From Lytechinus pictus (taxonomy: Eukaryota): a stretch of 64,000 nt of DNA. Location of the stretch: the NCBI RefSeq assembly GCF_037042905.1, contig NC_087245.1, forward strand, positions 35,156,001 through 35,220,000, in the 5' to 3' direction. How positions within the stretch are numbered: the stretch's first letter is position 1; each line of letters opens with the position of its first letter. Made by a program: the position numbers and the translations under genes. Below the pieces are notes generated by a model, which did no database searches, was not told the origin of the DNA, and worked only from the letters and a program-made list of their open reading frames with translations. Below are positions 8,302-60,124 of this stretch, in pieces.

Positions 8302-8579
8302 TTAACATTCAGATTGGGATCATCTCTGGCATTAATTGGTTTGATTTCGTACTCCCGTGCCCCGTGATTTAATGAAAATGTATATCTTATTTTGGATGCT
8401 TTGAAAAGTATGACGAGGAGTTGTGTACTACTAGGTGTGGGCCAACCGGCCAAGAAACCTTTTTTTCTTTGTTTGTTAATAATGAATTGTAATGATTCCC
8501 CTTTCAGGTGTTGATGATTACTATTGTTTGGACCAATCCTCATTGATTATACAATGTAAACATAATCTGGTGAACGCCT

Positions 8580-14619: not shown

Positions 14620-15177
14620 CCCGGGGGGGCCACTGACATTGACGAGTGGATACCATGCGCGACCAAAAAACACGTAAAAAGGATGTCTTTTTCAAGATAG
14701 GGCACGTTACGTACGTAACGTAATAAGGGTGTAAAAAACACTAAAATAATGAAAAAAGGGTATCTAAAATAATGAAAAAAGGGTATCGCAAATTTGGCCC
14801 TTAATTTGCGAGGGTATAAAAAATTAAGACTAAAATGTTTTATAAAGGGTGTACTTTTTGCCCCAAGAGTCAACACTACGTGTTCAGAGTACAATTTGCG
14901 CGAGGTGTTGTGAGGTGGGGCTGTACTAAACCCAATGATGTAGGTAAAACCGACGACCGACGTCGTCCGTGGCATAACAATTGAAATATCGCTGTACTTG
15001 TTTAGGGGTTCAATTCAGGAAATACTTGCCAAGAGTATCGTTTTGTTTGTAATACTTGTTAAGGGTAGGGTTTCACACACCAAGTCTTGTTAAGGGGTGC
15101 ATTTTCAGAATATGGAAAATACGTGTTTAGGGTGCTTTTCGAGACCCCATGGTCGCGCATGGTATCCTCTCGTCAAT
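14620..15177 (-). mobile_element. CCCGGG-ended MITE, one terminus truncated
   Basis: Reverse-complement homologue of 38773-39348. It lacks the last ~20 bp of one TIR. Confidence 0.88.
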
Positions 15178-20100: not shown

Positions 20101-20276
20101 AATAATGAAAGTATGAACTGTCTTCCCCTTTCTTTCTAATTGATAACAGAAATGTCTAAACTTGTACTCAGAATTGGTAATCTCAATCCTTATTCCTTTC
20201 TACCACCACTCCCCATAGGCTACTTCTCCTGCTTTTCACCTCATTACCAGACTCACTTAAAAAGATTCAGGCTTAA

Positions 20277-20906
20277 CCCTAACGCTTCGTGCGATATTTC
20301 CAAAACGGAAAAAAAATAGCACCGCAAAGTTTCATGACTATTTTCTTTAAAGTCTCGCGCAACTTTTGAGACTAAATTCGCGACATACGGGTATAGCATC
20401 CCGACGCCATGTGACTTTTTAACGAGACAATGTCATGCCGAAAATGGCTCACTCTTATACTTTGTGTACAAAGTCTATGGGAGATGAAATTCATAAAAAG
20501 GGTGATTATTTGTCGTTCTAATTGGTTTGCTTAAATAATTTAGGGATTAATTAGTTGTTAAATGGTCTGTAATAATTTCCATTGAAAAAAACAATGAAAA
20601 ATCAAGGAAATACATAAGAAATTCAAAAAACAAAGAAATACATTTGGAAAAAATTGTCTTTCGCAATTCTTTTTTAATGAAACCTTTAAATTAGATTGGA
20701 AAAAAGAAGAAAATTTGAAGCGAAATTGGGTGTTGAATATGCAAATAATGTTTTTCACAAATAAGTTGGCATATTTCATTCATAATAAATAAAATATAAT
20801 TATTTTCAGAATTTTTTTTTCACACTGGCTTGTAGTTTATGTGGTAAAGAATGTGCATTCCAAATTTTGGAGCGATTACATCTCAAATAGCCCAGTCCTT
20901 TTAGGG
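20277..20906. mobile_element. piggyBac-like MITE (TTAA|CCCTAA...TTAGGG|TTAA)
   Basis: TTAA TSD at 20273-20276 and 20907-20910. The empty site is visible in a sister array unit (gatgcaggcataaattaatg, ~29631). Confidence 0.8.
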
Positions 20907-23900: not shown

Positions 23901-24727
23901 AATGAAGCGTGGGATATGAGTCAAAGAAATTATTCTTTAACAAAATAAATCACAGAGGATTATGCAATTTGCAGAAAAGGGAAAAATTCTTTCCTTACAT
24001 CACCTCTTTGCCAGTTTTTCCACTCTATTTTTCTTCATAATCTTTGAAAATTATTCAAATTAAAACTGGGTAAGATAATAAAAATATATATGAATTTGGT
24101 TAACAATATGATGACACATCAAGTTTGCTATTATATTATGATACATTCATGTTTGGAAACTTCAGAGGTTCAACGCTATGTGCAGGAAAGAATGTCTTCT
24201 CCCGGTACACCCATCTACTCCTATGTTTCACAAGTTCAATTTGTTAAATGTAACCGCTTTAAAAGAGTTAAATGTCAAATCCAATGCCTCTTTTGGATCA
24301 TAACTCACCTAAATACCAATAACTGCTCACCTCAGATATTCCTTGTAGATGATAATATCAAAATTGGAGTCATGTAATTGTTTCTGGTAGAATGGCTCTT
24401 TCATTTATACTGGAAGATGGTTCACACAAGATAGGGGATGTAGACATGCTGTACACTGAGTGACGTGACTGCAGATGTAAGTGGAAGAACAAATATATTC
24501 TAACAAAATTTCCTTTTAAAAAACATTCGTCATCCAATCGAATATGTAATTATGAAAATATGATCTGTCTTCCCCTTTCTTTCTCATTGATAACAGAAAT
24601 TTCTGCACTTGTGGTCAAAGTTGGTAAACTCCATCCTTTCTGCCACCTCTCCCCATATGCTACTTCTCCTACTTTTCACCATATTATTGGATCACCAAGT
24701 TTTAGTTCACTCAGGTTACTTATTTAA

Positions 24728-25120
24728 CCCTAAAAGGACTGGGCTATATTTAAGATGTATTGAGGACTTCTGATCTCGGTAGCAGTTCGCGTGATCCTGC
24801 TGAAATTTGCCACACACATTCCTTACAACATAAACTATATAAAGCCAGTATAAAAAATTCAGAAAATTTTAATTTTTTTATTCATTATGAATAAAATATG
24901 CAAATTAATTTGTGAGAACATTTCTGCATAGTTAATACTCAATTTCACTTTAAATTTTATTCCTATTTTTCCAGATGTCATCTTTGTAATCAAATTTAAA
25001 GGTTTCCACAAAGAAAAATTGCGAAGGCCTTTTTTTACCTTATGTATTTTTTTGTTTTTAGAATTTATGCGCTATTTGTTGGCGTTTCGGAAATATTGCG
25101 CGAAGCGTTGGGGGGGGGCC
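24728..25120. mobile_element. Second, inverted and truncated copy of the piggyBac-like MITE
   Basis: Starts TTAA|CCCTAAAAGGACTGGGCTAT, the reverse complement of the 20906 end. It ends near gcgaagcgtt, matching the 20281 end. Confidence 0.7.
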
Positions 25121-25984
25121 ATCATGGAGGTATAACTTAATGTTGTACTTTGTCAGAAAATGGGACAATTTTTGTTTATTAAACGCAATGAAATTTCATT
25201 CTACGACTTGCACATCCATCTCTTGTCCCGTTTTCTTACCTTACTTTGACTTTTTGAAAGTCAATACAGATTTGTAATCATTCACATTGAGGATTATGCA
25301 GTTTGCAAAAAAAGTGAAAAATTCTTTCCTTGCATCACGTCTTTGCCAGTTTTTCCACCCTATTTTTCTTCATAATAATCTTTGAAAATTATTGAAATTA
25401 ACACTGGTGAAGATGCTAAAAATTTATATGAATTTGGTTAACAATTTGATGACATATCATGTTTGCTAAATATATTATGATACATTCATGTTTGGAAACT
25501 TCAGAGGTTCAACGCTATGAGCAGGAAAGAATGTCTTCTCCCGGTACACCCATCTACTCCTCTGTTTCACAAGTTCAATTTGTTAAATGTAACCGCTTTA
25601 AAAGAGTTCAATGTCAAATCCAATGCCTCTTTTGGATCATAACTCACCTAAATACCGATAACTGCTCACTCCAGACATTCCATGTAGATGATAATATCAA
25701 GATTGGTGTCATGTCTTTCTGGTAGACTGGCTCTTTCATCTATGCTGGAAGATGGTTCACACAAGATGGGGGATGTAGCCATGTTCTACACTGAGTGATA
25801 TGACTGCAGATGTTAAGTGAAAGAACAAAATAGTTTTCTAACAACAATCCTTTTAAAAAATCATTCATCGTACTATGAAACATGTAACTATGAAATTAAT
25901 TAAAGCTTACATTGGGATAAATGCACTGCTGGTACTCACAAATCTCACCTGATTTTTGTGGCATCGAGTTTATAGATATGAATA

Positions 25985-26605
25985 TAAGGTTTTTAATATA
26001 GGTTTTAATATTTTGGACTTCCAACTACTCCCCCTTTTTTATATTCCAGTTTCACCAGATCTTTTTCAACAAGGTTTTCTATACGGATATTTCAGTTTGT
26101 TTAGAATGCTTCTTTGATATCAATTATTCATATGCCTTGTATACTTGCCTTTCTTAATCCTATTCTTGACCAGAATGATACCTATTGTAATAATTACATA
26201 TAACTCAATAATGCAATGATTATCATATTACCGTTCAGCATGGAGGTGATTTTTATTTACAGTTATTTATATTTCTGCAGCTTTTGCAATGAAAATATTT
26301 ATTTATATTCCGGATACATCTCTATTTCCTTTGATTCATTTTGCCCCCCCCCCTTTCCTTTGCATTCCTACTTTTTAGTGTGCAATATTTTGTGTAAGAG
26401 ATTATATACTTGATTTATGTCATGGGAGCGGCATGTGTGGGGGGCACATGAATCCGGGCAAGTGCTGAATTTCACTTTTGCGCCCCCTGACCCACTTGCC
26501 GCTCCCATATTTCATTGCATGTTTGTGAAATTGTAATTGTTTTCTGATGTATTGTATTTGCTCTTTTTTTATTGGTCAAGTAAATAGAAATTTCGATATG
26601 AATAT
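25985..26605. mobile_element. ~620-bp insertion in one array unit, probably a retroelement 3' fragment
   Basis: Absent from sister units and flanked by a gatatgaatat direct repeat. It contains a GC-rich stem-loop (26422-26508) followed by a T-rich tract. Confidence 0.5.
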
Positions 26606-28334
26606 GAATATCGCAATAATATGAACTATGTTTGTTTACACACATACATTCCCAAAGTTAAGAACAAAATTTCTCCAAAATGTTTCCTTCTGAGAAGTGC
26701 CTACTTTATGCAGAGGTTGCAACTGAAACAAGATATAAGTGAAATGACCTTGCCTATCAAATCTGTATTTTTTTTGGTAGGAAGGTTCAGAGGCATTGTG
26801 AGGAGGCATGTATGTATGTTGCAGATACATATATCACGAAGCTGGGTGCGCTCACTCATTTGATGGAAGAAAAGTGTAACTAACAGATATATTATGATAC
26901 ATTCATGTCTGGAAATTTCAGAGGTTCCATGCTATGTGCAGGAAAGAATGTTTTTTCCATGTACACCAATCTACTCCTCTCTTTACTGTAAGTTCAATAT
27001 TTTTAATGTAACTAAATGTTTGAAAGAGCTTTATGTCAAATCCAATGCCTCTTTTGGATCATAACTCACCTAAATACCAATAACTGCTCACGCCAGACAT
27101 TCCATGTAGATGACAACATCAGGATTGGTGTCAGGTCCTTGTTTCTAGTAGAGTGGTCCTTTCATTTATGCTGGAAGATAGTTCACACAAGGGTGTGCAT
27201 CCATGCTGTACACTGAGTGACGTGACTGCAGATATAAAGTGAAAGAACAAAATATTATTCTAACAACATTTCCTGTTCATAAACATTCATCGTACTATGA
27301 AACATGTTAAGAATGAAGGCTTACATTTCGACAAATACACTGCCAGTATACGACACCATAACACTTTTCAGAGCATTTTAAATTAGAGGATATGTACCAT
27401 TACATATCCCTAAAAACGACTCAATCTTACCTGATATTTGTGGCATCTAGTTTACAAATTTGAATATATGAATATTCCAATATAATGGATTATGTTTGTT
27501 TACACACATAAATTTCCAAATTTAAGAACCAAATTTCTCCAAAATGTTTCATTCTTCTAACAGCTTACTTTATAACTGTGTAACTATATAACTGCAATCA
27601 CCTTGCCTAATCAGTAAATTTTTTGGTAGGAAGGTTCAGGGGTATCGTGAGGAGGCAGTGGGGGCAGTTGCAAAAAGAAAGAAAAACATGAAGGGAAAGA
27701 AAGAGAAATATGAATGCAAAGGGAAGAATGGTAGCATTGTGGGTATTTGGAGTTTTTTTTCTCAAAAGCATAAAAACCTAAATTAAATATCTTCTCTCTC
27801 TACTTTGATGTAGAAATGTATGTAAATTCGGTTTACAATTTGATGACACAGTATTTGCAAAATCAATTATGATACATCCACATTTTGAAACTTCAGAGGT
27901 TCAATGTTTCGTGTGAAAAGGAAATTATTCTCCCTGCACACTCATCTACTCCTCTGTTTCACAAGGTAAATATGTTTAACGTGACTAGATTTTTAAAAGA
28001 GTGTTATGTCAAACCCAATGCATCTTTTGGATCATAACTCACCTAAATATCAATAAGTGCTCACACTAGACATTCCATGTATATAATGATTTCAAGATTG
28101 GTGTCATGTCCTTGTCAGTGGTAAACTAGCTCTCTTATTTATGCTGGAAGATGGTTCACACAAGATAAGAGATGTATCCATGCTGTACACCGAGTGATAT
28201 GACTGCAGATATAAAGTGAAAGAACAAAATATTATTCTAACAAAATTTCCTTTTCAAAAACATTCATTGTACAATCAAATATTCAATTATGAAAGTATGA
28301 ATCGTCTTCCCTTTTCCTTTTAATTCATAAGAAA

Positions 28335-29496
28335 AACAAGTGGAGCGCCTCTGGCAGTCTCACCTGCATCGTGCGATTCAATATAGCAGCAGTGATGACT
28401 TTGAAAACTACTATAAAATAATTATTCACAAAAAACACCATTCATATGATAAATACTACATTCATTGACAATAAATTACATTTGACCTTGATCATGCAAC
28501 CTAAGACTTGTCAGTGATACTTGATTACCCCTATATCCACATTTTACAAACTTTAAAAATTATGACAGCAATCTAATAATTACCTCTGAAATGGCCAAAG
28601 TTCAATGACCTTTGACCATGGTCATGTGACCTGAAATTCACACAGGATGTTCAGTCATACTTGATTACTCTTCTGTCCAAGTTTCATGAATCAGATCCAT
28701 AAACTTTTAAAGTTATGATGGTAATTCAACAGATACCCCCCAACATGGCCAAAGATCATTGACCTTTGACCTTGGTCATGTGACCTGAAATTCGCACAGT
28801 GATACTTGATTACTCTTATATCCAAGTTTTATGAACTAGACCAATGAACATTCAAAGTAATGATGGTAATTCTACAAATTATACCCCCAACTTGGCCAAA
28901 GTTCAATGACCTTAAATGACGTTTGACCTTGTTCATGTGACCTGAAACTCGGACAGGAAGTTCAGTCATACTTGATTATTCTTATGTCTAAGTTTCATGA
29001 ATCAGATCCATAAACAATCAAAGTTATGATGGTAATTCAACAGATACCCCTAACTTGGCCAAAGTTCATTGACCCTAAATGACCTTTGACCTCGGTCATA
29101 TGACTTGAAACTCAGACAGGATGTTCAGTAATACTTGGTTAACCTTATGTCAAAGTTTCATGAAATAGGTCCATACATTTTGTAAGTTATGATGACATTT
29201 CAAAAACTTAACCTTATGTTAAGATTTTGATGTTATTCCCCCAACATGGTCAAGTTCATTGACCCTAAATGACCTTGGTCATGTGACCTGAAACTAAGGC
29301 AGGATGTTCAGTAATACTTGATTAACCTTATGGCCAAGTTTCATGAACTAGGTCTATATACTTTCTAGGTTATGCTGTCATTTCAAAAACTTAACCTTCG
29401 GTTAACCTTTGGTTAAGATTTGGTGTTGACGCCGCCGCCGTCGGAAAAGCGGCGCCTATAGTCTCACTCTTCTTCGCAGGACTGGTGAGACAAAAA
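28335..29496 (-). mobile_element. Non-autonomous Helentron-type (HINE/DINE-1-like) element with internal ~150-bp tandem core repeats
   Basis: On the minus strand: 5' TTTTTGTCTCACC..., a (GGC)n microsatellite, tandem cores rich in TGACCTTTGACC, then a subterminal inverted GCAGGTGAGAC and the 3' end GCCAGAGGCGCTCCACTTGTT. Inserted in a T-run with no TSD relative to sister array units. Confidence 0.8.
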
Positions 29497-31448
29497 TGTC
29501 TGCACATGTGGTCAAAGTTGGTAAGCTCCATCTTTTCTGCCACCACTCCCCATAGGCTACTTCTCCTGCTTTTCACCTTATTACTGGACAACCAATTTTT
29601 AATTCACTTTTAAAGTTACTCATTAAAAAAGATGCAGGCATAAATTAATGATAATTATAGAAATAAATAGTTTATCAGGTGCAATGAAACTTCATTCAAC
29701 GTCCTTGGCTTGTACATCCATCTCTTGTCCTGTTTTCCTAGCTTAATTTGACATTTTGAATGTCAATACAGTATGTCAATACAGTTTCTTAATCATTCAA
29801 AATGAGGGGTGAGATATAAGTCATAAAGACTTGTCCTAAATTTGATAAATCACAGAGGATTCTACAGTCTGCAGAAAAGGGGAAAATCATTCCTTGCATC
29901 ATCTCTTTGTCAATTTTCCTCTCTATTTTCTTCATCTTTAAAAATTACTAAATTTAAAAACATTGAAGGTGTTAGAAATGTATGAATTTAGTCAACAACT
30001 TGATGACACATCATTTTCGCTAAATATATTATGATACATTCATGTTTGGAAACTTCAGAGGTCATAACTCACCTAAATACCAATATCTACTCACTCCAGA
30101 CATTCCATGTAGATGATAATATTAAGATTGGTGTCATGTCCTTGTTTCTGGAAGACTGGCTCTTTCATTTCTGCTGGAAGATAGTTCACACAAGATAGGG
30201 GATGTGGCCATGTTGTACACTGAGTGATATGACTGCAGATGTAAAGTGAAAGAACAAAATATTTTTCTAACAACATTCCTTTTTTTTATCATTCATCCTA
30301 CTATGAAACGTGAAACTATGAAATGAATTAAAGCTTACATTGGGATAAATGCACTGCTGGTAGACAACACTGGAACACTTTTCAGAGCAATTTAATTCAA
30401 AGGATTTGTACCATTATATACCATTAACACCTCACAAATCTCACCTGATTTTTGTTTATAGATTTGAATATATGAATATTGCAATATAATGGATTATATA
30501 TGTTTACACACATACATTTCCAAATTTAAGAACAAAATTTCCACAAAATGTTTCCTTCTGAGAAGAGCGTACTTTATGCAGAGGTTGCAACTGAAACAAG
30601 ATATAAGTGAAATCGCCTTGCCTATTAAATCTGTATATTTTCTTTTGGTAGGAAGGTTCAGCTGCATAGTGAGGAGGCAGTGGGGGCAGTTGCAAAAAGA
30701 AAGAACATGAGGGTAAAGAAAGAGAAATATGAAAGCAGAGGGAAAATGGAAGAATGGTAGCATTGTGGGTATTTGGATTTTTTCTCAAAAGCATAAAACC
30801 CTAAATCAAACATGTTCTCTCTCTCTAATTTGATATATAAATGATCTAAAATTGGTTAACAATTTGATGACACATCATTTTTGATAATTATATTAAGATA
30901 CATTGATGTTTGGAAACTTCAGAGGTTCAACGCTATGTGCAGGAAAGAATGTCTTCTCCCTGTACACCCATCCACTCCTATGTTTCACAAGTTCAATTTG
31001 TTAAATGTAACTGTTTTAAAGAGTTTAATGTCAAATCCAATGCCTCTTTTGGATCATAACTCACCTAAATACCAATAACTGCTCACGCCAGACATTACAT
31101 GTAGATGATAATATCAAGATTGGTGTCATTTCCTTGTTTCTAGTAGAGTGGCTCTTTCATTTATGCTGGAAGATAGTTCACACAAGATAGGGGATGTATC
31201 CACGCTGTACACCGAGTGATACATGTATGACTGCATATGTAAAGTGAAAGAACAAAATATTATTTTAACAAAATTTCCTTTTGAAAAACATTCATTGTAC
31301 TATGAAACATGTAATGAATTAAGGCTTATATTTGGACTAATGCACGGCCGGTATACTTTACCAAAGCACTTTTCAGAGTGATTTGTGCCATTATATATCA
31401 TCAGCAACAACTCACAATTCTAAACCAATTTCTGTGGTATCTATTTGG

Positions 31449-31696
31449 TTTATATGACACCTAAAAATTGGTCTGCTGATTGTTACGTCATTACAACATG
31501 TGCACTGGAAACACGAGTAGTCCCTGCAGCCTGCAGTCTCGGTGCACACGTGCAATGGACAAAATCGTATGGATCCAAACTTGCACAATGGATGGATCCA
31601 AAATTGCACGGTTGATGACGTCATTGCAAAATGGGCTGAATGAACGATATCAAACATCCAAGCAAATCACAAGGATCTATCTAGGTGTCATATAAA
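31449..31696. mobile_element. ~250-bp MITE inserted in the last array unit
   Basis: 15-bp TIR TTTATATGACACCTA / TAGGTGTCATATAAA. Absent from sister units. Confidence 0.7.
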
Positions 31697-32473
31697 TTTG
31701 AATATATGAATATTGCAATATAATGGATTATGTATTTTTACACACATACATTCCCAAATTTAATAACAAAATTTCGACAAACTGTTTCCTTCTGAGCGTT
31801 TTTTATGCAGAGGTTGCAATTGAAACAAGATATAAGTGAAATCACCTTGCCTATTAAATCAGTAATTTTTTTTGGTAGGAAGGTTCAGGGGCATAGTGAG
31901 GAGGCAGTGGGGGCAGTGCAATGGCAGCATTGTGGGTATTTGGTTTTTTTTCTCAAAAGCATAAAAACCTAAATTATACATTTTCTCTCTAATTTGATAT
32001 ATAAATGTATCTAAAATTGGTTAATTTGATGACACAGTATTTGCTAAATATATTGTGACAGAATCGCTAAATCTTAAGAAGCAAAACTTACGTAACAAAC
32101 TTAGCAATTATGACGTTATAATGCACCGTTTTTTGTAGCGTCGTTAAGTAAGAAATTTCCATTGTGACGTAGCACTGGTCATGGCTACTTCTGATCAGAA
32201 ACCATTAGCAATACGCATAAATAGCGTAATTAATCAAATGCGCGCTCCATATCTTGCCCCATAAAAGTTACTTTCCATAACGAAAATTATCATTAACCTA
32301 GATAAAGATTTTGTTGTTCACGGTGCCAAGGTTACTGATATCTCTGACATATTTTGTTCTTGACAACTGTGCTAACCTTTGAAGGTATATCTCAATAAAG
32401 ATGAATTTTTGGAGCAGGAGGCTAAGAGCCTTTGTAACTTAGATATTTGTCACCAAGGGTCTCTATATGAGGC

Positions 32474-32666: not shown

Positions 32667-33810
32667 TAGTGAGACCACTACATATCGACCACCTCTTTTG
32701 AAACCGACCACCTTCTTCACCATGTAGGTATGTTACAAAAGCGCCCTCTAGGCGTTTGCATGTGCAAGGAAAGGTTACCGGTATTCCTCATGACATCATT
32801 GTTTTTTACGTAGTTGAATGTTTACGGCAGCTGTCTATAGACTTGAAATAAAATCTCACTCGGTGATCTTGCGACTCTGTGTGCTACTGGAACTTTGGCC
32901 TTGCTTTCAACCTCTTGCTATTCATATTTACAGGTATCATCCCACTCTAAAAGGTATGCATTCCGATAGAACAACATTTCAACTACATTGTGGTGAAATT
33001 TGAAAGAAATCTACTGTACTGACGCTAAGTGTGTTTTTTACGTCCCTGTTTCGGCAGCATCTGTAATTTTTGGGAGTGTTGTTGGGCACTTCCACATGCC
33101 AATGTACGCGCATTGTTGTTTTCTATTAGTGCACCTTGGGGCCAATTAAGGTCACAACTTTTGTTTTTAAAAACAAAGGAATACATAGGCTAATAAGAAT
33201 TGAATAGGCGATTTGTATGAACTTAAAACTACCATAACTTTCTTGTTACTGGGGCTATTGAAATTAATGAGGTATTAAATAAAAGGTCTTGATGAGCTAA
33301 ATGATGCTATGAAGCAAACACCTAATTTCTCAATTTTTTTTGTAACATACCTACACCTAACCCAGGGAGCTCCAGCCTGCGAAGCGCCCAGGACTCATCC
33401 GTGTAATAGACCTTATCGCAAATAGCGTTCGTCGCGTGAGGGCGTATGTCACCGCAAAGGATCACAGGAATGAAAAAGGGAGCAAACGCGTAATCGGCTT
33501 TCGGGAAGCCATACAACGCCATATGTTTTGTGTAGTGTCACTCAAAATCCAGGCTTTTTTTAAAGTCTGATTTCTTTGTATTGAAATCATTTTGGATACT
33601 TGAATGTGGATTTATAGAACAATCTTTTTATCATGATTGCACAGTGAAATTATGAACTCAATGCTCTCAACATTTTCATAGTTTTCTGGGGCTAAATTTG
33701 GGAAGATTTTGTAAGAAAAGTGAGCATGGTGATTACGGGTCAATGGCGATTGACTTTAGAAAAGAGCACGTCGGCGATCCGAAGAGAGTCTGAGGCTATT
33801 TTTCCATTAA

Positions 33811-34418
33811 AGGATAAGTCCTCCCAACAAATAGTCCACCTGAACCAATAGAGAAAAATCCAACCAGCATAACACTGAAAATTTCATCAAAATTGGATCA
33901 TTGGATGTAAAATAAGAAAGTTATGACATTTTAAAGTTTCACTTAATTTCACAAAACAGTTATATGCACATCCTGGTCGGTATGCAAATGAGGAAACTGA
34001 TGACGTCATCCACTCACTGTTTCTTTTGTATTTTATTATATGAAATATGAAATATTCTAATTTTCTTCTCATTGTCAAATGAAACAATGATTAATTCCTC
34101 TTGAACATGTGGAATTAGCATTGTTTAATACTATATGGTTCAGTCAACTTGGTTCTTATTGTCAAATCTGTAAAAAATGAAATCCTGTATAAATCAAACA
34201 ATAAAAAACAAAAGAAATAGTGAGTGATGGACATCATCAACTGATCATTTGCATGACACTGACTTGTGAATATCACTGTTTTGTGAAAAATAAGAGAAAC
34301 TTTAAAATGCCATAACTTTCTTATTTTACATCCGATTTTGATGAAATTTTCAGCGTTATGCTAGTTTGAATTTTCTCTATTTATTCAAATGAACAATTTT
34401 CTGGGGTGGACTTGACCT
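33811..34418 (-). mobile_element. TTAA-target MITE (Kolobok-like), same family as 7701-8301
   Basis: TTAA at 33807-33810 and 34419-34422. The body is the reverse complement of 7701-8301. Confidence 0.88.
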
Positions 34419-34660
34419 TTAAAGAATATATTGATGAGCATCATAATGTAGACCATAATATATTTTATCTCCATAACTAGTAAATTTAGCTAGTTTTTGC
34501 TATTTTGGGGGAATATAGTCCTTTGCAAATGGGGCTTTTGAGTTTGATCATTGGGATTACAAGATCTATAATGTTTGATAGTGGGGGGGGGGGGGGGGGG
34601 GTGGGGGGTGAGAATCGAGGTTCGAGCGGCCGGAGTGACCAAATATAAAGTATATTTATG

Positions 34661-38772: not shown

Positions 38773-39348
38773 CCCGGGGGGGCCACTTCCATTGACGAGT
38801 GGATACCATGCGCGACCAAGGGGTCTCGAAAAGCACCCTAAACACGTATTTTCCAAATTCTGAAAATGCACCCCTTAACAAGTATTGGCGTCTGAAACCC
38901 TACCCTTAACAAGTATTGGAAACAAAACGATACTCTTGGCAAGTATTCCCTGAAATGAACCCCTAAACAAGTACAGCGATATTTGATTGTTATGTCACGA
39001 GTCCATCGGTCGTCGGTTTTACCTTTACAGTTTACACACCATTTGGTTTAGTATGGCCCCAGCTTCCACACCTCGCGCAAATCGGACTCTAAACACGTAG
39101 TGTATGGGGCAAAAAGGACATCCTTTATAAAACATTTTAATTTTGTTTATCATATCCCCGCAAATTTGACCCTAAACACGTACTAGCTTTCCTAGCGAAA
39201 AAGATACCCTTTTTTCATTATTTTTGTGTTTTTGACACCCTTATCACGTTACGTACGTAACGTGCCCTATCTTGAAAAAGACATCCTTTTTACGTGTTTT
39301 TTTGGTCGCGCATGGTATCCACTCGTCAATGTAAGTGGCCCCCCCGGG
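38773..39348 (+). mobile_element. Full-length CCCGGG-ended MITE (576 bp)
   Basis: ~47-bp TIRs (CCCGGGGGGGCCACTT.CATTGACGAGTGGATACCATGCGCGACCAA). TSD GGGTAGTC at 38765-38772 and 39349-39356, which is 8 bp if the end is CCCGGG as in the 14620 copy. Confidence 0.92.
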
Positions 39349-42630: not shown

Positions 42631-44206
42631 GCACGGATAAGCATGATAAGTGCACAAGTTGCAGTTGCTCGTGCGCGGAGAATGAATTAAGTTTGGCGGC
42701 TGGGTAAAGTCTAGCGAGAAAGGCACGTCACCAACGAACTTCACGATAGACCACGCCTACTTGCCGAGGTAACCAATGTTGATTGACAGCCCATTTAGTT
42801 TTTTTAGTAGTATGAAAAAGTACAGGCATGTATAAACTTCATTTTAGTTAGAATTCATTCAAAAAACAATTTTTAAACATTTATTGCTATATTTTCTACA
42901 TGAAAAAAGGAATTTTTACGCGACAATCAGTATGATATGTGTGGGCACCGTTTAAGTCATAAAGCATACGATACTCTGTGGATTTAACCTCCAAACGTCA
43001 CTTTCGATACCACGTGAAGGTAAGACACTTCATCCCACATAAGTCAACTTTAATATAGAAATCACAGGGCATAATATTTGTAACTAAGATTAACTAATTT
43101 ACTGAGGAAAAAGCATTTCAATGGTTGTTTTTGCCGTCGAGAACAGACCATGGGTGGCGAGGTGCACTATTTACGCACTTGCAATTGGCTTCTCATTTGC
43201 CCATAGCAATATGGCCAAGGGGATCAGCCGACCTTTTGGGAACCCTACTTACACAGTAAATGGACGCGGCCTAAAGTAAAGGGGTCGTTGTAAAGCAGAT
43301 TCGCAAGCATTTTAGCTGATTTTACAAGAGACTGATGTGTGGAAAGATAAAAGACCTTACTTTTTAAAATCATGGAAAAACAGGTTATTCAGGAATGAGA
43401 GAGATTAGAGGGAGAAAGATACCGTATTTTGAAATGCAGCGCTGGCAGATAAAAAATTGCGCACGTTGACGTACCTACTAATAAAACCGGGAGCTGATTT
43501 TAAACTCGGTTACAGCCAACGTTCTCGCCAGGTTCATTCTGACGCTTGGCGGCGCGAAGCGATGATACGCAAGCCGCGCAGCGGCCTTGGTGCGTGCGAA
43601 GCACGCACGGGGGGAGGGTCGCGGGAGGGGGGTGTCCCCCCTCCCACGCGGAGCGCGGTAGCTATCGAAAATATCAATATCGACGAGCTTAGATTGCTGC
43701 TAAATGCACCACATTTGATGTCTATTTAATGCTTCTCCGGCCACACAGCCGTAACGGTTGCGCGAATTGCGATCGATTGAAGCAGAAAGGCAAGTACTGA
43801 TGAAAAAGGTCAAAAGAAAAGATTTAAATTCAATCTCATTTTATACTTACAGTTTATAGATTTATTCACATCAATGACATCGATAATGTACTCCATACTT
43901 TCCAATGTCTAGATCGCTACGTCCTTAGAAAGTGCGATTCATTTTGTGAATGCGTGTCAATGACCGACTACATCTACGGACCGCATGCGCGCCGCGCCCT
44001 TACTCAATCCAAAGATTGTTCCGACTTTGTTTGGAAGCCTCGGAAGAAAACTTCCGAGGCTTCCAAATAATGGGCATCGGTATTCATGAGACGATATAAT
44101 TTGCATGTTTGTTTTGTTTTCAGATACTCACTGAAACTATGACTCTCATAATTAAGACTTCTGCTGATGATGTTTATACTAATAATATCCAATCAAGATT
44201 CGTTTA

Positions 44207-44602
44207 TCACTGTCAATTATTGCTATGTTCATTTGTATTGTTCTATACTCGCCTATAAAATAATGAATGTGTCCATCACGAGCGGGAGAAATATTTTTAG
44301 TCATTCATCATACTTTAATATTACGATTTTGTTCTTATTATAATTAATTGCGATTTAAAATGTTTTAAAAGTAAAGCTTAATTGACAGGAAAGTAGATTT
44401 ATACTCACTGTCAATTATTCCTATATGTTCATTTGTATTGTTCTATACTCGCCTATAAAATAATGAATGTGTCCATCACGAGCGGGAGAAATATTTTTAG
44501 TCATTCATCATACTTTAATATTACGATTTTGTTCTTATTATAATTAATTGCGATTTAAAATGTTTTGAAAGTAAAGCTTAATTGACAGGAAAGCAGATTT
44601 GT
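44207..44602. repeat. Near-perfect ~198-bp tandem duplication
   Basis: Two copies of tcactgtcaattatt...ttgacaggaaag.agattt. Confidence 0.92.
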
Positions 44603-45480
44603 ATTTTTAAATAATGCACTATGTAGGCCTACAAATACAGCGTGTGTGAAAGAGAGGAAGAGGGGGGGGAGGGTTGTAGCTAGGATGGTCGAAGGGGGAG
44701 CGCGAAAGGGGAGGGGTCGTGGCGTGGACAATGACAAGGGGATGTTGAGATCGTACGTGTGTGTGGGATTGGTGAAGAAGTCAATATTCGAAGCGAATGC
44801 ATATTTATAGACATGTCTATACTACTACTGATGATGACGGCTGAATAATCTTTCTTTACATGTATATTTTGGCGATTTTAAATTTTTTAAATATTTTCTT
44901 GCATCATGAGTGGGAAGATCGAGGTACGTGATTCAATAAATTGCATCAGTTTTCAAGTTACAGAAATTCACGAACAGATTATTAAAATTGAAAAAAAAAA
45001 AGAGTCAGAAAGATCTTTTTATAGCCCCCATCCAGTGTAAACAACATGAAGAATATTTGAGGTCACGAAACCAGCTGATTCGCATTCATACAACAGGTTA
45101 ACAGGTCACGCACATGGTACACAGTCATTCAAAGGGCGGGAATTCGGGGAAACCCGTTTTCAAGCACAATGATTGGCTCAACCCAGAAAGTGAATACTAA
45201 TTAGATCACGTGCCATCGGCTTTGGGGCGTCTCGTTCACATTCCAACTCATTTCATAAATATAATCCACTCGCAGTAATTAGGCTAACGACGTTGTAAAG
45301 ATAACTCTCTATATAAAACACAATTCCGATATAAAACATATATAACGACATAAGTGAAATTGAAAAATTCATCCAGCGATATTCAAATTATACTAGCGAC
45401 TCATGTGGGCGTGGGCAAACAAAATACATATCCTCTAAAACGTTCACACATATCAACTTCAATAATTCGTACTTGAAATG

Positions 45481-45634
45481 CAGGGGCCGCGGAAAGGTCT
45501 TGAAAGTGGGGGGGGGGGGCTGACCACCATGCAAAAAACGCAATCAGGTGGTCCTGTTTTTTTACATGGTTTTGGAAAAAAAAGTGGGGGAGCTGAAGCC
45601 CACCCAGCCCCCCCCCCCTGTTTCCGCGGCCCTG
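45481..45634. mobile_element. ~153-bp CAGGGGCCGCGGAA-ended MITE
   Basis: TIRs are present and the flanking 5-bp direct repeat is AAATG. A sister copy is at 59612-59764. Confidence 0.8.
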
Positions 45635-47312
45635 AAATGAATATCTGTGAATGAATTGTCAATTCCACTTTGTTGAATGTGTACTTTTATTGAAATCTAT
45701 TGAATCACGTACCCCTCCCGACCAAGTCCAAGGGTTGATTTTCCACTCGCCATAAAGATTATGCAGCCACAATCACAGTAGACACATCCATAAAAGAATA
45801 TTAATTTAATTCGCTCCGAACATTGACTTCTTTTCGCCAATCCCCTCCCAACAAAGTCACAAACATCCCATCATTTTCATTTACATTGCCCACGACCACC
45901 TCCCATTATTCTCTTTCTCCTTTACACAAATTAATTTCAAATAATATTTTATTTTAAATCGTAGTTGTTACCGGGAGTTGTTAAGCAATTGTACAACAAA
46001 TTCACGAAGCATTCACTGTAATGACTAATTGGCAGGCAAAGAGTAGTAAAGAACAATACAAATGAAAATACACTGTACGTATAACTCACATTAAAAAATG
46101 AGTCGTAATATGATAAAAAGCGTGAATAAAATTAATAAAGATTATTACTTATGAAAATTATAACAGATTCAATGAATATCTGAAGAAAAAAAAAACATTC
46201 AAATCAGTTTTGGATCCCATCTAATTTTGGAAGACCCGGATAGATTTTGATGCCATGTGCGATTTGTATTATGTATGTGGCCATGGCGAGCGCTAGTGCA
46301 GTGACACAGAACTTGGTAGACACACCGTCGCGAAATTAATCGACACTTTCAAAAGATCGATGTAGAGATCAAGACTTTGGAAATTATGGAGTAAAATTGG
46401 AATATAAATGTGAATAATCATTTTGCTGTGAGTAAATGAGTTGGACATTATATCAATCCATTCATGTGGCTGTGGCTTTGTCATTATTAACGTGATCTTT
46501 TAATAATTTTCTCAATTCGTTCTACGGCAGTGTCATCAGAAATGCATTCAATGAATTCATGTACCGTAGATGTAGCTATAATAAGGCTGGGGCCTGGGAC
46601 GAGATGAAACTAAATTTCGATCGAATTTTTATATTATTTTTTGACACACTTTACTTTTGACAAAATAAATGACAATATCAACTGAAATTCGTAACATCTA
46701 AATTACATTGCCCAACCCAGTAACCCACGGTACCCCTCTCTTCTCACTTTATTTTTGAGCGTATTTTACTACCATTTTAAAGACGTAAATAATGAGAGCA
46801 ATGCGATACGCAAATGCGAGGTAAACATCTTCGCACTTCCCACATAAGAGAGAGAGAGTTAAATTGGGCCTCGAGTCGAGGTCGTATCGTATACAGCATA
46901 GTAGCGAAGCAAAGAAATCCCGGGAAGAAATCGTGGAAGAAATAATCGACAAGTTTATTTTAGGATCTGAAAAGCAGATTGTTTTTATTTTAAATATATT
47001 ATTCAGTTTTTTGTGTGGATCTAGGCCTGTTTTACAGTTGTCGGCCACGGTTGTCGGGGAAGTTCACGGTTGGCGGATTTGCCCTGAAAATTTTCAGGGT
47101 TGTCGGCGCCCGCCAACCGTGACGCGTGGTAGCGAGAACGTTGGTTACAGCCATACCTTCATCCATATAATCGAGGTAAGTGCATAATTTATATTTTCCC
47201 CTTTTATTTTGAGTGCTATTGCGACCCCATTTTGGAGAGCATCTGTCCGCCTCGTATTACACGGACGAGTCCTGGGGAGTGTTTCATCAACATTTTCATC
47301 TGACAAGTTGTC

Positions 47313-49895: not shown

Positions 49896-50829
49896 GAGGA
49901 GACAAACGATGGGTTACTTAAATGACAGTGAAATTTCTTTGAAAACAGTGGAGTAAAAAATGTAAACTTGGCTGAATTATCGCTGCCTAAATGAAATGTA
50001 AGATTGATAAATGACAGGGTTATTTTATAATTAGATTTTTTTTTTCCTTAGTAACATTTAAGAGAGATTAACAAAATTTGTGGCACTGACTAAATAAATT
50101 GGCCGATCATTTTATTCAGATTTTTGTCAGTTAAGTCAGTCAGTCATGAAAGGCCTTTATAGATTCCCACTTGGCTGACAAAATAAGACAGAACTTTGAA
50201 TTGGGAAGATCATCAATCTGATTGTCGACCACTGACTAAATAAATTTAGAACGATTTTGATTCTGTCAACTTTCAGAAGACAGATGCAAATTCTACTTTC
50301 TGTCAATCAACAGGTGTGAGAAATTAACAAGCATGTGGCACGCGCTGGGTATGCGTACATAACGAGCCGTGAAATTTACATGTCTATTGAATTAGGCATT
50401 CCTGCACACTTGTAATATACATATAGTATCATGTAGATATCATTTTGGGGAAAGTAATTAGTTTGTGAAAGCTGTGTATCGAGCTGCAGGGATTATTGAT
50501 ATTCATTTAGTTTGTTGAATGTTCAAGAATGATTTGACAAAGTGTGAGGCATTTTCCTCGATACACAAATTTTATTTTTAGTCAGTTATCCCATCAATGA
50601 TAACAACGTTCTAGAAAAAGAAAGAGCAGAATCAAACAAACCAGTTTCCGATAGGTTTTTCTTTATTTAGTCCAAGCCAACACTCAAAGGCGAAAAAGCA
50701 AATGAGAAAGTTTTGAGGGAGAGAGAGAGAGAGGATAATAAGAAAGTATATCCCCTTGCACACGCACTGGAAGATTTTGATCGTGAGCCAACTCGAGCGC
50801 GGATGGAACTTCAGACCCAGTGTCGAGAC

Positions 50830-51698
50830 CACTCTAGGCGACACCCCAATACTTACCCGTGTTAATAAACTGGGACTCCACTCACGCGCATTTGGGCCGC
50901 CCTAGCTTAGAACTAAGCAATATTATCTAGAAATTGTTAAACTATAGTCATATAATATGTTCTATTAAATAAATTGATAATGTTTAATCGGTACTCACCG
51001 GTTCTTTTGTTGCATTTTCAGACCATTTCTCACAATTCTTCGTAAATATTTGCGGCAAATTTTGTCGCCATAGACAGCTATACGTCCATCTTTATTAATA
51101 AATGGAGCGCCCTTTACGATAGTTGTTAATGCCGCGGAGAAATCGTCAGGCATTTTGGCCTGTGTTCAAGGCGTTCTTTCTGTTTTATTTTTTATATTGA
51201 AGATTGTGCATTTGTTGAATAGCGCCGTCTACGTCAGGTATGAGATCGAGTGTATAAATACACTCTTCCAAAATAATTATGATTCCGACCTGGCGCTGTT
51301 TAACTTCAATTTCTTTCACCTAAATTAGCGATGAATGCTAGCATTATAAAATATATATTATTAACGTCTGACAAAAAGAATAATCAACCGATCAGCTGAC
51401 GAGAACGCGAATCACGTGATCTTCATATCAGCTTCAATCGCGAGTCAGAAGTGAAGAGCAACTGCCCAGAAAATCAGGAAAAAGCCGTGAAAATGTAAGT
51501 TCCCCTTCATTTTTTTGTTGTTGCTAACGATGCATTTACACTATAAAATTATAATTTAATTAGATAAAGGAATATAGCTTGTACTTGTGATATAATATAG
51601 AAATATCCTGTTCTCAGATATTTCTAACCAAAAATACTACTGATGTCGCCTATGAGGTCCATACATGTAATGTTTGGACCTCATTGGTACTAGGAGTG
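50830..51698. mobile_element. Putative element A (CACTC...GAGTG ends) flanked by GTCGAGAC direct repeats
   Basis: GTCGAGAC at 50822-50829 and 51699-51706. Subterminal IR TAGGCGACA/TGTCGCCTA and a 3' hairpin ATGAGGTCCA/TGGACCTCAT. Confidence 0.5.
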
Positions 51699-51707
51699 GT
51701 CGAGACT

Positions 51708-52635
51708 TAGACCAAAAGCTTCGGTCTCTGTTATGTTGGTTGTTCCGCTGAACTACGTTGGCTCCACTCACCAAATACATAGACCGAAGTTAAACCGTCG
51801 TCTGTACAGGGGCTCAATGGCCACAGCTAATTTCTTGTTTTTCTCCTCGATACCGCGATATTTTCCACCAAAAGTTCATACATATGCACCTATAGCTGAA
51901 AATGTATAAGTAACGACAGTTTCTTACCCTAAATTCCCCCTTTAAAACTAGCAATCAGGGGATTAACTCTGAAAGTTGACACTTGCGACTCGGACTAGTG
52001 GGCAGCCATCTTGGTAATGAATAATTCATGAAAAAGTGGCTGACTCCGCCCCATGACCTTTACATCACACATTACAGAAGGGGAAAAGAAAGGAGCAGTT
52101 AAAGAAACAAAAGAAAAAAGGGGAAATAAAAAATAAAAAGAAAAGTAAAACAAAAAAGAGAGAAAACGAAAGAGAAAGAGATAAAGGAAAATGGAAAAAA
52201 CCGTCTAGAATTTTAGTATTCATAAACCCGACGTAAAAGAGATGATCTGATTGGCCAATGGTTTTGATACGCAGTTGACCCGGAAGTTCTTCCAACGGCA
52301 TATGTTTGTGTGTTATATCGACTTCGGATGAACGAGTGAACTAGGAGCTACACGACAGCCGAGGTAAGTCGCTGTTTTTTTTCCTTTTAATTTTATTTTT
52401 CCCTCGTTTTTGGCAATTAATGCCAAGAGGGAATATTAATTCGCATATTTGTCCATTTATTTTCATATATATTTATGAAATAAAGACAAAAATCGATAAG
52501 CCCCGTCGGGGGGAATTTGCATTGTACCTCCCCTAATGGTGGCGACACGCTAGCGAGCTGTCTGTGTATGAGGAGAAATTAAAAAAATAAAAAATGTTGA
52601 AAAACTCCTCGAAACAGACGGCTGCCAGCTGTCTA
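51708..52635 (+). mobile_element. Putative AcademH-like non-autonomous element B (TAGAC...GTCTA) with 9-bp TSD
   Basis: GTCGAGACT at 51699-51707 and 52636-52644, TAG...CTA termini, and a subterminal hairpin at 51719-51789. Confidence 0.62.
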
Positions 52636-52644
52636 GTCGAGACT

Positions 52645-53057
52645 TAGACAGCTGGCAGCCGTCTGTTTCGAGGAGTTTTTTAACTTTTTTTTTTTTTTTT
52701 TTTAAATTTCTCCTCGTACACAGACGGCTCGCTAGCGTGCAGCCACCATTAGGGGACTTGCAATGCAAAATCCCCCCGTCGGGGCTCTTCAATTTTTGTC
52801 TTTAATGAATAAAAATTTTGAAAATTAACGCCACCAAAATGCAAATTAATATTCCCTCTTGGCATTAATTGCTAAAAAACGGAGAAAAATCTAGTTAAAA
52901 GGAACAAAAACAGTGACTTACCTCGGCTGTCGCGCAAATTCACTTCCCCGTTTTATCCGATCTTAAGTACATAAACATATGGCCATTGAGTCCCCTGTAC
53001 AGATCGCGCTAGAACTTCGGTCTCTGTATTTGGTGAGTGAAGCCAACGGAGTTCGGT
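52645..53057 (-). mobile_element. Inverted, internally deleted and truncated relative of element B (element C)
   Basis: 52645-52932 mirrors 52353-52635, and 52980-53057 mirrors ~51750-51823. Confidence 0.62.
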
Positions 53058-53784
53058 AATCCTGGGTTTTAGGGGCGTAAAATATCTGTATACATTACCG
53101 GCCTCCAACTTCAGCCAAATCATCCAAGCATAGTATGGACTGCTAAAAGGGCAAATATTCAAATATTATTGGGCTGTTTTCAACATTTTTGTCTCGCATG
53201 CTGGGCCTTGTTATTATGTGGATCTTTTCTTGAAACTTTGGCACTAATGCAATTAAGTTTCACTGACCGAGTTGAAGGTCACATGATCAAAGTCAAAGGT
53301 CATTTAGGGTAAAATTTTTAATTGCATCTGAAATATACGTTTATAGACCTGCATTTTCCCATATATACAACCGCATGTTCTTATTGAAGTTACCAACTTG
53401 AACAATATTTAATCATGACTGTCTCCCCCCCCCCTCCCCTTTGTTTTTCTCCAGCAGTGCTCTACTTGGTCAGAAATTATGGAGTGAGATCACTTGACAA
53501 ACCCGATGCAAGAATTGGATGGCAGAGCCAGATACATTACCAGGCATTTCATCAACGGTCTATAATAAATGATGATAAAAAAGAACAACAGATAAACTAT
53601 ATTTTGACTTAAGGGGGGGGGGGGAGGGGGGAGTATTTCAAGCCATTTTTTAGGAGAGAAGATCAACTTTGAAAATATTAATATATCCCCTAATGTAACT
53701 GCCGGGTTTGAGGGGTATAAATTATTTTGGGGGCTGAAGGGGGGTACTTCCAAGAAATCTACATTTGAGTGGAGGGGGGGGGGG

Positions 53785-56815: not shown

Positions 56816-58560
56816 TCGAGTGAGGGTGATTACAGTCCCTTGCACGTGAGATGAGAGGGGATCAATAATTTCTGTCTTTTACTTTTAAAGCAAAAGCAGC
56901 ACTTTTCGCCCGATAGGGGGGAAAATATGGATAAAAATATTTTTCAGTTCATTACCGTCCTGTTGGTGAAAGCTGGTTCTGCTCTTGATTACCATAAAGA
57001 GATGATATATTGTATTTTGTATTTTTGATGTTGTCTGTTGTTAGGGTGTCCAGAACATTTTTCTATCTTTTTTATTAGGCAAAATGTGCTTTGTTCATAT
57101 CTAACATAGATAAGAATTCATCTATCTAAGACCACTTACCAAGGTTAGATGTTGTAAGATCATCCAGGAAAGCTATAATTTGAGGTTGAAATTTCCCTTT
57201 TTCCCGAATAAAAATGCACCGATATTCCGCGCGAGCCCTTGAAAATCACGTCCTCCCGGTGCGTTCAAAGTTGTACAGTGTATTGCGAATTGGACCCTTC
57301 GCGGCCTCATATCGCATAGACGCACGTCAGTCGCTTAATGAAAACTGCTGCCGTTATATGCTTTTAATGTACTGGTGTATGGTTTAATGCCCTTGACCTT
57401 GTCATGTTAAATTATCAAAATTGCATACATTCTTAATGTTATTTAAGAACGATGAAATCTAATTCAAACACCTGTGTTCACTGATATTATATCATGAAGA
57501 TATGAACCTACTATTATAGTATTATGTATAATGTAAAATTTTACTTCCACGGCATTAACCAATTGTGATTACTTTATTCTATATTCCGAAGGTGACTTTC
57601 TATTTTAGTCAGGCTGTACGTTTTACTGCTAAATTTCGACTGTTGGCGGTGACGCCCTTTGGAGGTGAGTTTCACAATCCGTATGCCCATGAACAAACGT
57701 GTTTTTACGATTGTTTCAGAAACGGATTTTGATTTCTTTTTTTTATTGGTCACATCATGGGCACTGATGACGAGTGTGACTTTACTTTTCATTTTTGATA
57801 GCTATATGCTCCTTTTAAAATCTGCGATATTATTTCTATGGCATTTTATAAACCATTTGTGATTATTTTATTCCATATGCCGAAGCAAACTATTTCTATT
57901 TTACCATTTATTTGTGATTATTATTATTATTATATAAATAGGTGGCGGAAGCGGGGGGGGGGGGGGCGTGTCCCCCTAAATGTAAGGTAAAGGGGACTAA
58001 ATTTTTAGTTGATAATCTTTTTTTTGGCTTGTCAAATTTGTTTCCTGCGCCCCCCCCCTCCCGCCCTAAATTCACGTGGACCCCACCTGAAATGTTTGTG
58101 ACCCCCCCTGAAATTTATATTTTACGTTGATGACCTTTTTTATAATTTTAAAGCACAAAAATCTATGGGAGATTTTAGGGTAAGTTGCCTTGCCACTCCC
58201 GCTTCCCAGGGTCATGCTGAACAGTCAAAAGTGGGGATACATGTATAAGCATATTGACCTATATTTTCCATCTTTTTTTTTAGGGGGGGTACGATATTGT
58301 CCTTTCAGAAGAGGAAGTGCCCTCTTTCTCTTGTGCCCCCCACCACCCTTTCAACTTCGCTATACGCCGCCGCCGCTGAAATAGTAATGTATAGTAAAAT
58401 TGATTGTTTGTAATTATTCCTTGATTTGTTTAAGTAGATTTAACGTTGTCATTGAATTTACTTCAGGTTTTATTATGGCTGATTCGGATGAGCTAGATTC
58501 ATTTGATGCAAAGATGTCCCTCCCCTCCCCGCTTCTGCGGCCCCTGAAAGTGATAGTTTG

Positions 58561-58674: not shown

Positions 58675-59846
58675 ATGTCGAAAGGCACGGGCCAGAGGGC
58701 AAAGGCAGAGAAGTTCATGAAGGGCAGCAGTGGAAAGACCCATGCAGTGTGGTCCAATGGTGTGGACATCAATAGGAAGGTGCGATATAGTTTAACAAAA
58801 ATTTATAAGTTTCTGATTTGGTTAGATTTAGGCATGAATTTCTTAATGAGAAAATACTCCCACGGGCTCCCATGCAAAAAATAATGACAATACAAGGAAT
58901 TAGTATGTTGAGACGATGTCGAGCATTGAGGGGAAGGGAAGTAATCACATATATTTTGTTCATGTAACATAATCACTACAATAACATATATTTCATAGAC
59001 AATCTATTTTAGGGATGCTATAATCATGTATTATTGTTATTTTTTCAGCTGGTTGTAATATTTGGAGATTCCCAAATGAGGGCAATTGTCCAGGGTAATT
59101 ACCGACACAAGTGGCCATTTTTCAACGTCATCGTGAACTGCACCCCAGGGGCAACCTGTGCTCACTTGAAGGAGGAGATACGTCAGTATGTCTATCCGAA
59201 GCGCCCAGACTTCATCGTCCTCCAGGTGGGAACCAACAACGTAAGGGCCAAAAACTGGCAGGGAGCCCTTGGAGAGGCGAAGATCCAGTTCCGCCAGCAA
59301 GTATGTCTGTCATGTGAGTACATTATCTTCATGTATTAGCACATTTGCGGAAATTCTATTCATTGTGATAAAATGTGAAGGTTCACATAAAGGTCAAGTG
59401 TTTCGCCAGTCTATAATGTGCGGAAGAGTTAATGAAAACATAACAATATTTGCCGTATCGTTTTGTTGTCTTAAAAAAATATACCTCTTGATATATTTTC
59501 TACTCCTGAATAATTGTTATTGTTATGCTGTCTGCTTTTAGTTTGATTAGCAGGATAGTAAATTAATTATGATTGTTATTGATATGATGTTGATTTGGGG
59601 AATATTATATACAGGGGCCGCGGAACGGTTTTCAAAGGGGGGGGGGGGGGCTGACCATGCAAAAAAAATCACAATCATAATAATTTGTACGTTTTTGTAC
59701 ACGGTTTTGGAAAAAAAAGTGGGGGACTGAAGCCCCCCCCCCCCCCCCGTTTCCGCAGCCCCAGATATACTAGGCTACATTCATGAATGAGGGAATATTT
59801 TCGTTAGATTTTGCAGATGGTATACAAGTAATGACTCTCGACCCCC

Positions 59847-59877
<31 letters not shown>

Positions 59878-60124
59878 CCACCTCCAGGTCATAGCGGTAG
59901 GAATACCACCACGTCTTGATGAACCTGGCAAGTTCGTAGATGTATACAATGGTTGTTTTCGGAGGATAGCCCTGGAGGAGGGAGTAGGCTGGCTGGACGT
60001 CGACCACCTCTTCGCGACCAACCAACCTATTCTCTGGGCCAGAGATGGACTCCACCTAAGTGACAACGCTGGGATCCCTCGATTCATGGATTTCATCTCT
60101 GGCCACTTGGCCAAGCTTTGTTAA
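58675..60124 (+). CDS. SGNH/GDSL-family hydrolase (esterase), ~197 aa, exons 58675-58779, 59049-59300, 59888-60124
   Basis: Both introns are GT-AG and phase 0. Block I VIFGDSQ, block II TPGAT, block III LQVGTNN, block V RDGLHL. Exon 1 is the least certain, and a short exon may be missing in intron 2. Confidence 0.85.
59612..59764. mobile_element. CAGGGGCCGCGGAA-ended MITE in intron 2 of the SGNH gene
   Basis: Homologous to 45481-45634, with flanking 5-bp repeat ATATA. Confidence 0.8.

Follow-up and report, generated by a model that had tools for sequence, protein, structure and literature searches.

The locus lies in a 64,000-nucleotide stretch of Lytechinus pictus DNA (contig NC_087245.1, 35,156,001 to 35,220,000), here called the window, with a GC content of 36.8% and an abundance of satellites and small inverted-repeat elements. 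A stack of three elements, A, B and C, is bracketed there by a 157-bp satellite that ends at 49876 and a 120-bp satellite that starts at 53782. Its parts, in window coordinates, are as follows (TIR, terminal inverted repeat).

50822..50829, + strand: spacer 1, GTCGAGAC, the left copy of A's 8-bp target duplication
50830..51698, no strand assigned: element A, a non-coding DNA transposon of 869 bp with a perfect 5-bp TIR (CACTC/GAGTG) and an 8-bp duplication
50835..50843, + strand: left arm of the subterminal inverted repeat of A, TAGGCGACA
51644..51652, - strand: right arm of the same repeat, about 41 bp deeper inside than the left arm
51649..51687, no strand assigned: subterminal hairpin at the right end of A, with 18-bp arms (z -6.4)
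51699..51707, + strand: spacer 2, GTCGAGACT, whose first 8 bases are A's right duplication and all 9 of which are B's left duplication
51708..52635, + strand: element B, 928 bp, non-coding and AcademH-like, TAGAC...GTCTA, with a perfect 9-bp duplication
52636..52644, + strand: spacer 3, GTCGAGACT, the right duplication of B and the surviving one of C
52645..53054, - strand: element C, inverted, of a shorter B subfamily that is without about 480 bp of the B interior
53055..53200, + strand: unrelated sequence joined to C's broken end, the fourth spacer being lost at the junction

A, B and C are non-coding. None of the 10 frames within or overlapping the stack matches Pfam, and the six Rfam matches in 50000-53600 are all below the gathering score and all on the B/C palindrome or a T-run. 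BLAST found no second copy of A, B or C elsewhere in the window, and in collections of viral, genome and metagenome sequences six pattern scans gave 0, 1, 0, 8, 6 and 4 loci, a yield at the level of chance, with agreement limited to 19-23 bases at all 19 of them. The remainder of the window contains further repeats and frames of its own. A 3,627-bp element at 43517-47143, apparently with nested repeats inside, has a 12-bp TIR (CAACGTTCTCGC) and an 8-bp direct repeat (GTTACAGC); a 6-bp duplication with a 13-bp TIR fits it too, and the duplication also begins with GT and ends with C. Two copies of a 560-bp element (38780-39341 and 14620-15177; 85% alike) have long TIRs that start from GGGCCACT, the first of them in a C/G-run target, and two inverted-repeat elements of 610 bp bounded by TTAA (7697-8305 and 33807-34422) are 86% alike. 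A 287-bp TAG...CTA stretch at 57606-57892, with the 9-mer TTTCTATTT on both sides and a weak TIR, is a possible element with a 9-bp duplication or a product of chance. About ten degenerate copies, 78-90% alike, of a repeat unit measuring from several hundred to 1,400 bp occupy 18800-32100 and are perhaps exons of a gene cluster, and exon-like frames at 59013-60124 on the + strand resemble an SGNH/GDSL-type hydrolase (Pfam Lipase_GDSL_2, a weak match at E 0.0026, below cut-off).

The three spacers share a sequence that is confined to them. Copies of GTCGAGAC begin at 50822, 51699 and 52636, all on the + strand, against 0.31 expected in the whole window; no other copy is present there on either strand, as the initial annotation had noted of this 8- to 9-mer, and none of 100 shuffles contained as many as three. 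Exact copies of the 9-mer GTCGAGACT stand only at 51699 and 52636, the copy at 50822 being an 8-mer followed by C. Over the 42,284 unmasked bases there is one pair of duplication-plus-5-bp-TIR units with a common spacer, and none of 100 shuffles yields such a pair. Single 8-bp duplication-plus-TIR units are frequent by chance (10 in the real sequence vs 9.1 in shuffles), and A's ends taken alone are therefore weak proof of an element.

Evidence on other copies comes from contigs of four public runs (X1, X3, X19 and X21; 22 listed) aligned on 50250-53450, X19 and X21 being from one organism and one study and hence not independent. It comprises the best 15 of 126 joints, 12 of 58 rows of letters between joined pieces, 24 of 1127 loose-end rows and 32 of 18,534 pieces, and shares calculated from it are rough. 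One X19 contig covers 50250-50855, the region of spacer 1, with 0 differences. Loose contig ends lie just before 51708 in 156 contigs of X3, 40 of X21 and 35 of X19, and for 97 contigs of X3 they lie just behind 52635; the flanks at these ends agree with one another at 0.35-0.38, compared with 0.34-0.37 for unrelated DNA of the same composition. B is a full-length member of a dispersed family and its exact ends fall at the spacers; since its flanks are unrelated across contigs, the spacer is a locus-specific target duplication that lies outside the family. The initial annotation had set its reading against a spacer internal to one larger repeat and against copy boundaries that depart from the spacers, and for B these contigs show neither. 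Contig depth is high at the B ends and low in the B interior, and the family includes members of about 130 bp that are almost only the two hairpin ends (X3, X19 and X21), with joints such as 51754 to 52591 and 39 letters between. A joint of 51708 to 51742 between opposite strands was disregarded, B's left end being itself a hairpin. Both ends of B read TAGAC-N11-GTCT and each carries a longer subterminal hairpin (left z -3.3, right z -4.1); hairpins had been reported beforehand for A and B and are found at the right end of A and the left end of B, that at the right end of B being an addition.

Element C is an inverted relative of B, as had been proposed, with 251 of 288 aligned bases (87%) equal to the right part of B and 67 of 73 equal to its left subterminal part. 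The match continues only up to B position 51750, leaving 42 bp and the fourth spacer absent; that this far end was missing had been recognized before, although the stack had been extended to 53057 and C ends at 53054. The remainder of C's far end was not found in the window, and its duplication is seen on one side only. Past 53054, 44 X3 contigs run on into sequence that resembles the left terminus of B, and two contigs, X3 record 30 and X21 record 22, match from 53055 with 158 and 32 other letters, respectively, before that point. These B-like continuations, together with the contigs that start at 53055, indicate that C breaks at 53054/53055 and that the loss is local. A contig of X1 spans 52726-53039 in one piece with 9 differences, across C's missing interior, and because X1 does not cover the upstream flank, the short form of C must be present at other loci. 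Where B and C meet, the sequence forms a strong palindrome around the 9-mer, with 55-bp arms that are 95% complementary. Just past the break in C, a 26-bp piece at 53062-53087 is about 90% like the 120-bp satellite some 700 bp onward.

The contigs also contain tandems from elsewhere. Head-to-tail B-B joints of 52635 to 51708 are present in at least six (X3), three (X19) and four (X21) contigs, and further B-B joints from 52637 in at least two (X3). The frequency of such tandems, which the initial annotation had put forward as a check, comes for the B type to 8/164 (X3), 3/38 (X19) and 4/44 (X21) of the left-end junction contigs listed, about 5-9%, whereas chance would give 0.005-0.25% for an assumed 1,000-50,000 copies in an assumed 0.8-Gb genome. 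Two of the B-B joints are readable, one with a 9-bp spacer, GGTTATGAT, that differs from GTCGAGACT and the other with 13 letters, and some B-B joints may be circles or have longer gaps. At least one X3 contig leads from the right end of A to a left end of A across the 8-bp spacer GTTATATC, which is AT-richer than GTCGAGAC. Target re-use is thus a habit of the B family and also occurs in the A family, where one tandem was found, and the constancy of the spacer described in the initial annotation holds within the locus but not between loci, where other tandems have other spacers. A single X3 contig joins the right end of A (51699) to a B-type right end (52643) with an implied 9-bp spacer that has at least two differences from GTCGAGACT and a short side of 26 letters; it is either the present locus in a B-less allele whose spacer has changed, or another mixed junction.

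Element A is a family distinct from B and makes an 8-bp duplication. Its boundaries are placed by one tandem joint, a step in depth and the TIRs, A ends having no rows among the loose ends listed, and over its interior the family contigs differ by about 2% in X1, X19 and X21. The arms of its subterminal repeat align at 12 of 13 positions (p 0.025, uncorrected). In the P superfamily the TIR is continuous over some tens of bases and the autonomous partner encodes a P-type transposase, the third base of the hAT terminal consensus is a purine and the fifth is G, and Zisupton/Dileera elements have a short TIR with a subterminal repeat and a KDZ transposase in the autonomous partner. Compared with a P-type TIR, the perfect TIR of A is only 5 bp long, with an offset 9-bp subterminal repeat in addition, an anatomy that would fit the Zisupton/Dileera picture. 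The length of its duplication fits hAT, while both ends, CACTC, depart from the hAT consensus, which makes hAT less likely for A without excluding it. Helentron-like elements also combine a subterminal repeat with a hairpin and make no 8-bp duplication, and this reading of A is disfavoured by its duplication. According to the passages available, duplications of 8 bp are common to P, hAT and Zisupton (PMC5932611, PMC3706591, PMC12730594), the last source giving this length for Zisupton/Dileera, and A has it. As in P-type targets, the duplication of A is GC-rich and near-palindromic, and GTCGAGAC equals the P consensus GTCTAGAG at 6/8 positions (PMC5932611) and GGCCAGAC at 6/8 (PMC2577343), both as given in the accessible text. 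A is left unclassified as of P, hAT or Zisupton type, its 5-bp TIR and its offset subterminal repeat and hairpin not settling the choice.

B and C fit AcademH, a putative placement by termini and duplication. AcademH elements begin with TAG and end with CTA, and so does B (TAGAC...GTCTA), with ends that are exact in the family contigs. A transposase and a helicase define AcademH, whereas B and C are non-coding and are known here by their ends and duplication. The perfect 9-mer on both sides of B is within the 9 or 10 bp given for AcademH, as against 3 or 4 bp for AcademX, in the section available of PMC10045372. Mutator/MuDR elements, described in part of PMC2774946 as having a 9-bp duplication and long TIRs (about 215 bp in maize Mu), were rejected for B and C: the length of the duplication fits, but long TIRs are absent. 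The two ends of B agree only in TAGAC-N11-GTCT, and its 100-bp ends align at shuffle level (p 0.13). Neither Academ tandems nor an Academ target motif was found described in the literature searched, which left aside the original AcademH paper and most subscription journals; Kojima's 2020 account of the AcademH lineage (Mob DNA 11:15) is said to be one in which tandem AcademH insertions and a target preference may already be mentioned.

The flanks of the B family point to a target preference. Their consensus has G at -13 and C at -12 on the left (X3, X19 and X21) and G at +12 and C at +13 on the right (X3), mirror positions that lie 3-4 bases outside the 9-bp duplication. The chance of G (or C) as the modal base at such a position is 0.001 with 156 flanks, 0.006 with 97 and 0.04-0.05 with 35-40, values to be read with the weighting of the consensus unspecified and a few other near-end positions also being G or C. 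An origin of the motif from TAG-ended neighbours was rejected, the modal bases at +10/+11 being C/T and not T/A. The last three bases of the duplication are GAC in X3 and X21 and TCA in X19, with AAC behind the right end in X3, and GTCGAGACT read on C's strand ends in GAC as in the B-family consensus. At B itself the outer motif is present at only one of the four positions, where the matching base, G, belongs to the TAG end of C. We regard this mirror-image GC preference just outside the B-family target as a new but modest finding. GTCGAGAC itself is a near-palindrome, like the targets of P and hAT.

The stack is probably (at about 0.8) the result of three separate cut-and-paste insertions at one target that each insertion re-created. 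The initial annotation had proposed this course of events, and it is supported by spacers that are target duplications and coincide with the element ends. At each insertion an intact copy of the target would have stayed next to the end of the element, and such a copy would then have been hit in turn. Either C or A would have come first, the other then using the adjoining target copy, and B would have entered last, between A and C and facing the other way from C; the far 42 bp of C and the fourth spacer would have gone in a subsequent local deletion. The nearest family contigs differ from B at 7/577 and 3/293 bases (∼1%), from A at 10/540 and 8/377 (∼2%) and from C at 9/313 (∼3%), which suggests, with contrasts that are not significant (Fisher p 0.11-0.47), that B is the youngest and was inserted between A and C. 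Growth of the stack was thus probably not polar, B having seemingly entered between its neighbours. Sequence preference, in the near-palindromic 8-mer and the GAC end of the 9-mer, may explain part of the re-use, and the G of a TAG end could put back one base of the B-family flank motif. Because the site agrees with the outer motif at only one of four positions, some pull towards existing element ends may also have acted. No empty or partly filled allele was clearly seen among the contigs of the four public runs. The duplications of A and B start at the same base and are of unlike length, which marks them as the work of two different systems. That two families with 8- and 9-bp duplications use a common target edge is a modest finding, seen at one sure locus and one doubtful one, and we found no description of different duplication lengths on one target edge in the literature searched, which left aside most subscription journals.

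The common starting base also raises the possibility that A-family elements aim at the duplications beside B-type ends, or the reverse. The X3 contig in which the right end of A meets a B-type right end and the poor fit of the site to the outer motif of the B family point the same way, but that joint is one contig with a 26-letter short side and may be a B-less allele of this locus, and with 6/8 agreement to two P consensus motifs GTCGAGAC is a good generic 8-bp target that A may have chosen alone; such cross-family targeting seems to us unlikely. We judge equally unlikely the wider proposal that the B family is of AcademH type with a marked drive towards element ends (5-9% of junctions), led by a palindromic flank motif in part restored by its TAG end, and that an unrelated 8-bp family systematically co-uses its sites, with mixed stacks at many loci acting as safe harbours. 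Less credible again is a single transposase group that leaves 8- or 9-bp duplications and moved A, B and C as one array. Both kinds of element do have very short TIRs and subterminal hairpins, and the left subterminal regions of A and B have the 10-mer CTCCACTCAC in common, but its p of 0.03 is uncorrected over 28 end pairs, and the 10-mer is too weak to serve as a link. BLAST found no similarity between A and B, their terminal bases are unlike, and the readable same-family spacers, one each, are of 8 (A) and 9 (B) bases.

The palindrome at the B/C junction, with its 55-bp arms at 95% complementarity, would be expected if B and C were one foldback or inverted duplication with the spacer as its loop. 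Beyond the tips, however, B and C are only 87% alike (251/288), yet family contigs lie within 1-3% of each of them, the short form of C is present in X1, a run without the upstream flank, and the 9-mer stands on both sides of B, which is unexpected for a foldback. This reading is largely refuted and, in our view, very improbable. The spacer as an internal motif of a composite repeat that moves as a whole is refuted for B and otherwise hardly tenable: nothing in the contigs was found to support it, the flanks at the B ends are unrelated in 156, 40, 35 and 97 contigs, the depth of the parts differs by orders of magnitude, and an A-B or B-C bridge with the GTCGAGAC or GTCGAGACT spacer is absent among the contigs listed. 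A fourth TAG-ended element, terminating in the upstream flank and having the spacer for a tip, was also considered and dropped; the flank resembles B's left end no better than shuffles do (p 0.25), and X3 and X21 show no rise in depth there.

Double insertion at a re-created target is already known, as the available text of three papers describes (PMC5932611, PMC2577343, PMC3706591), and the serial insertions that we favour are a case of this process; what is less familiar is to find two kinds mixed at one site. In the passages available, double insertion gives rise to tandem dimers of the P element and of hobo in Drosophila, the P-element dimers containing the 8-nt duplication with consensus GTCTAGAG (McGurk and Barbash 2018, PMC5932611), and P ends restore a 14-bp target motif so that repeat insertions give inverted pairs, the inverted singed-weak P pair being one that is described (Linheiro and Bergman 2008, PMC2577343). 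Like the stack, these have one target duplication between elements, both head-to-tail and inverted pairs, and a palindromic target motif beyond the duplication that the element end partly restores. They differ in being of one family with 8-bp duplications, whereas here a 9-bp subfamily pair adjoins an unrelated 8-bp element, and two-family dimers do not appear in the accessible part of PMC5932611. Two families in tandem with a duplication between them are described for Dada, which targets fixed sites in multicopy snRNA and tRNA genes with a 6-7-bp duplication (Kojima and Jurka 2013, PMC3706591, in part). This resembles the stack in its two different families, but both partners there are Dada and the flanks of B are diverse. 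Dada was itself rejected, with duplications here of 8 and 9 bp, unrelated B flanks and no Rfam family at gathering score in 50000-53600. Tandem casposons with a common duplication, outlined in the section available of PMC4779613, likewise have the unit-spacer-unit order and repeated use of one site, while the KolobokP multimers in the available text of PMC9587614 have long terminal repeats in common instead of a duplication spacer and are a separate case. The initial annotation had compared the stack to growth of an integron or CRISPR array, and of that likeness the unit-spacer-unit layout stands. A CRISPR array or integron has the same repeat or site at all junctions, a dedicated integrase and polar addition; here there is no integrase gene, leader or attI-like site and no sign of polar growth, and with mixed orientation, no Pfam-matching frame and spacers that differ at other tandems both systems were rejected.

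Transposon clusters and satellite DNA are known to arise through double insertion at a re-created target, and the locus is a clean example of it in a poorly studied element type. It offers two testable leads, the first being an AcademH-like family with a target-site motif and a high rate of tandems, and the second a possible sharing of sites between superfamilies. If that sharing is not systematic, the stack is an ordinary nest. If it is, it would suggest target capture at the ends of foreign transposons and would explain how islands of harmless transposons build up in the genomes of animals.
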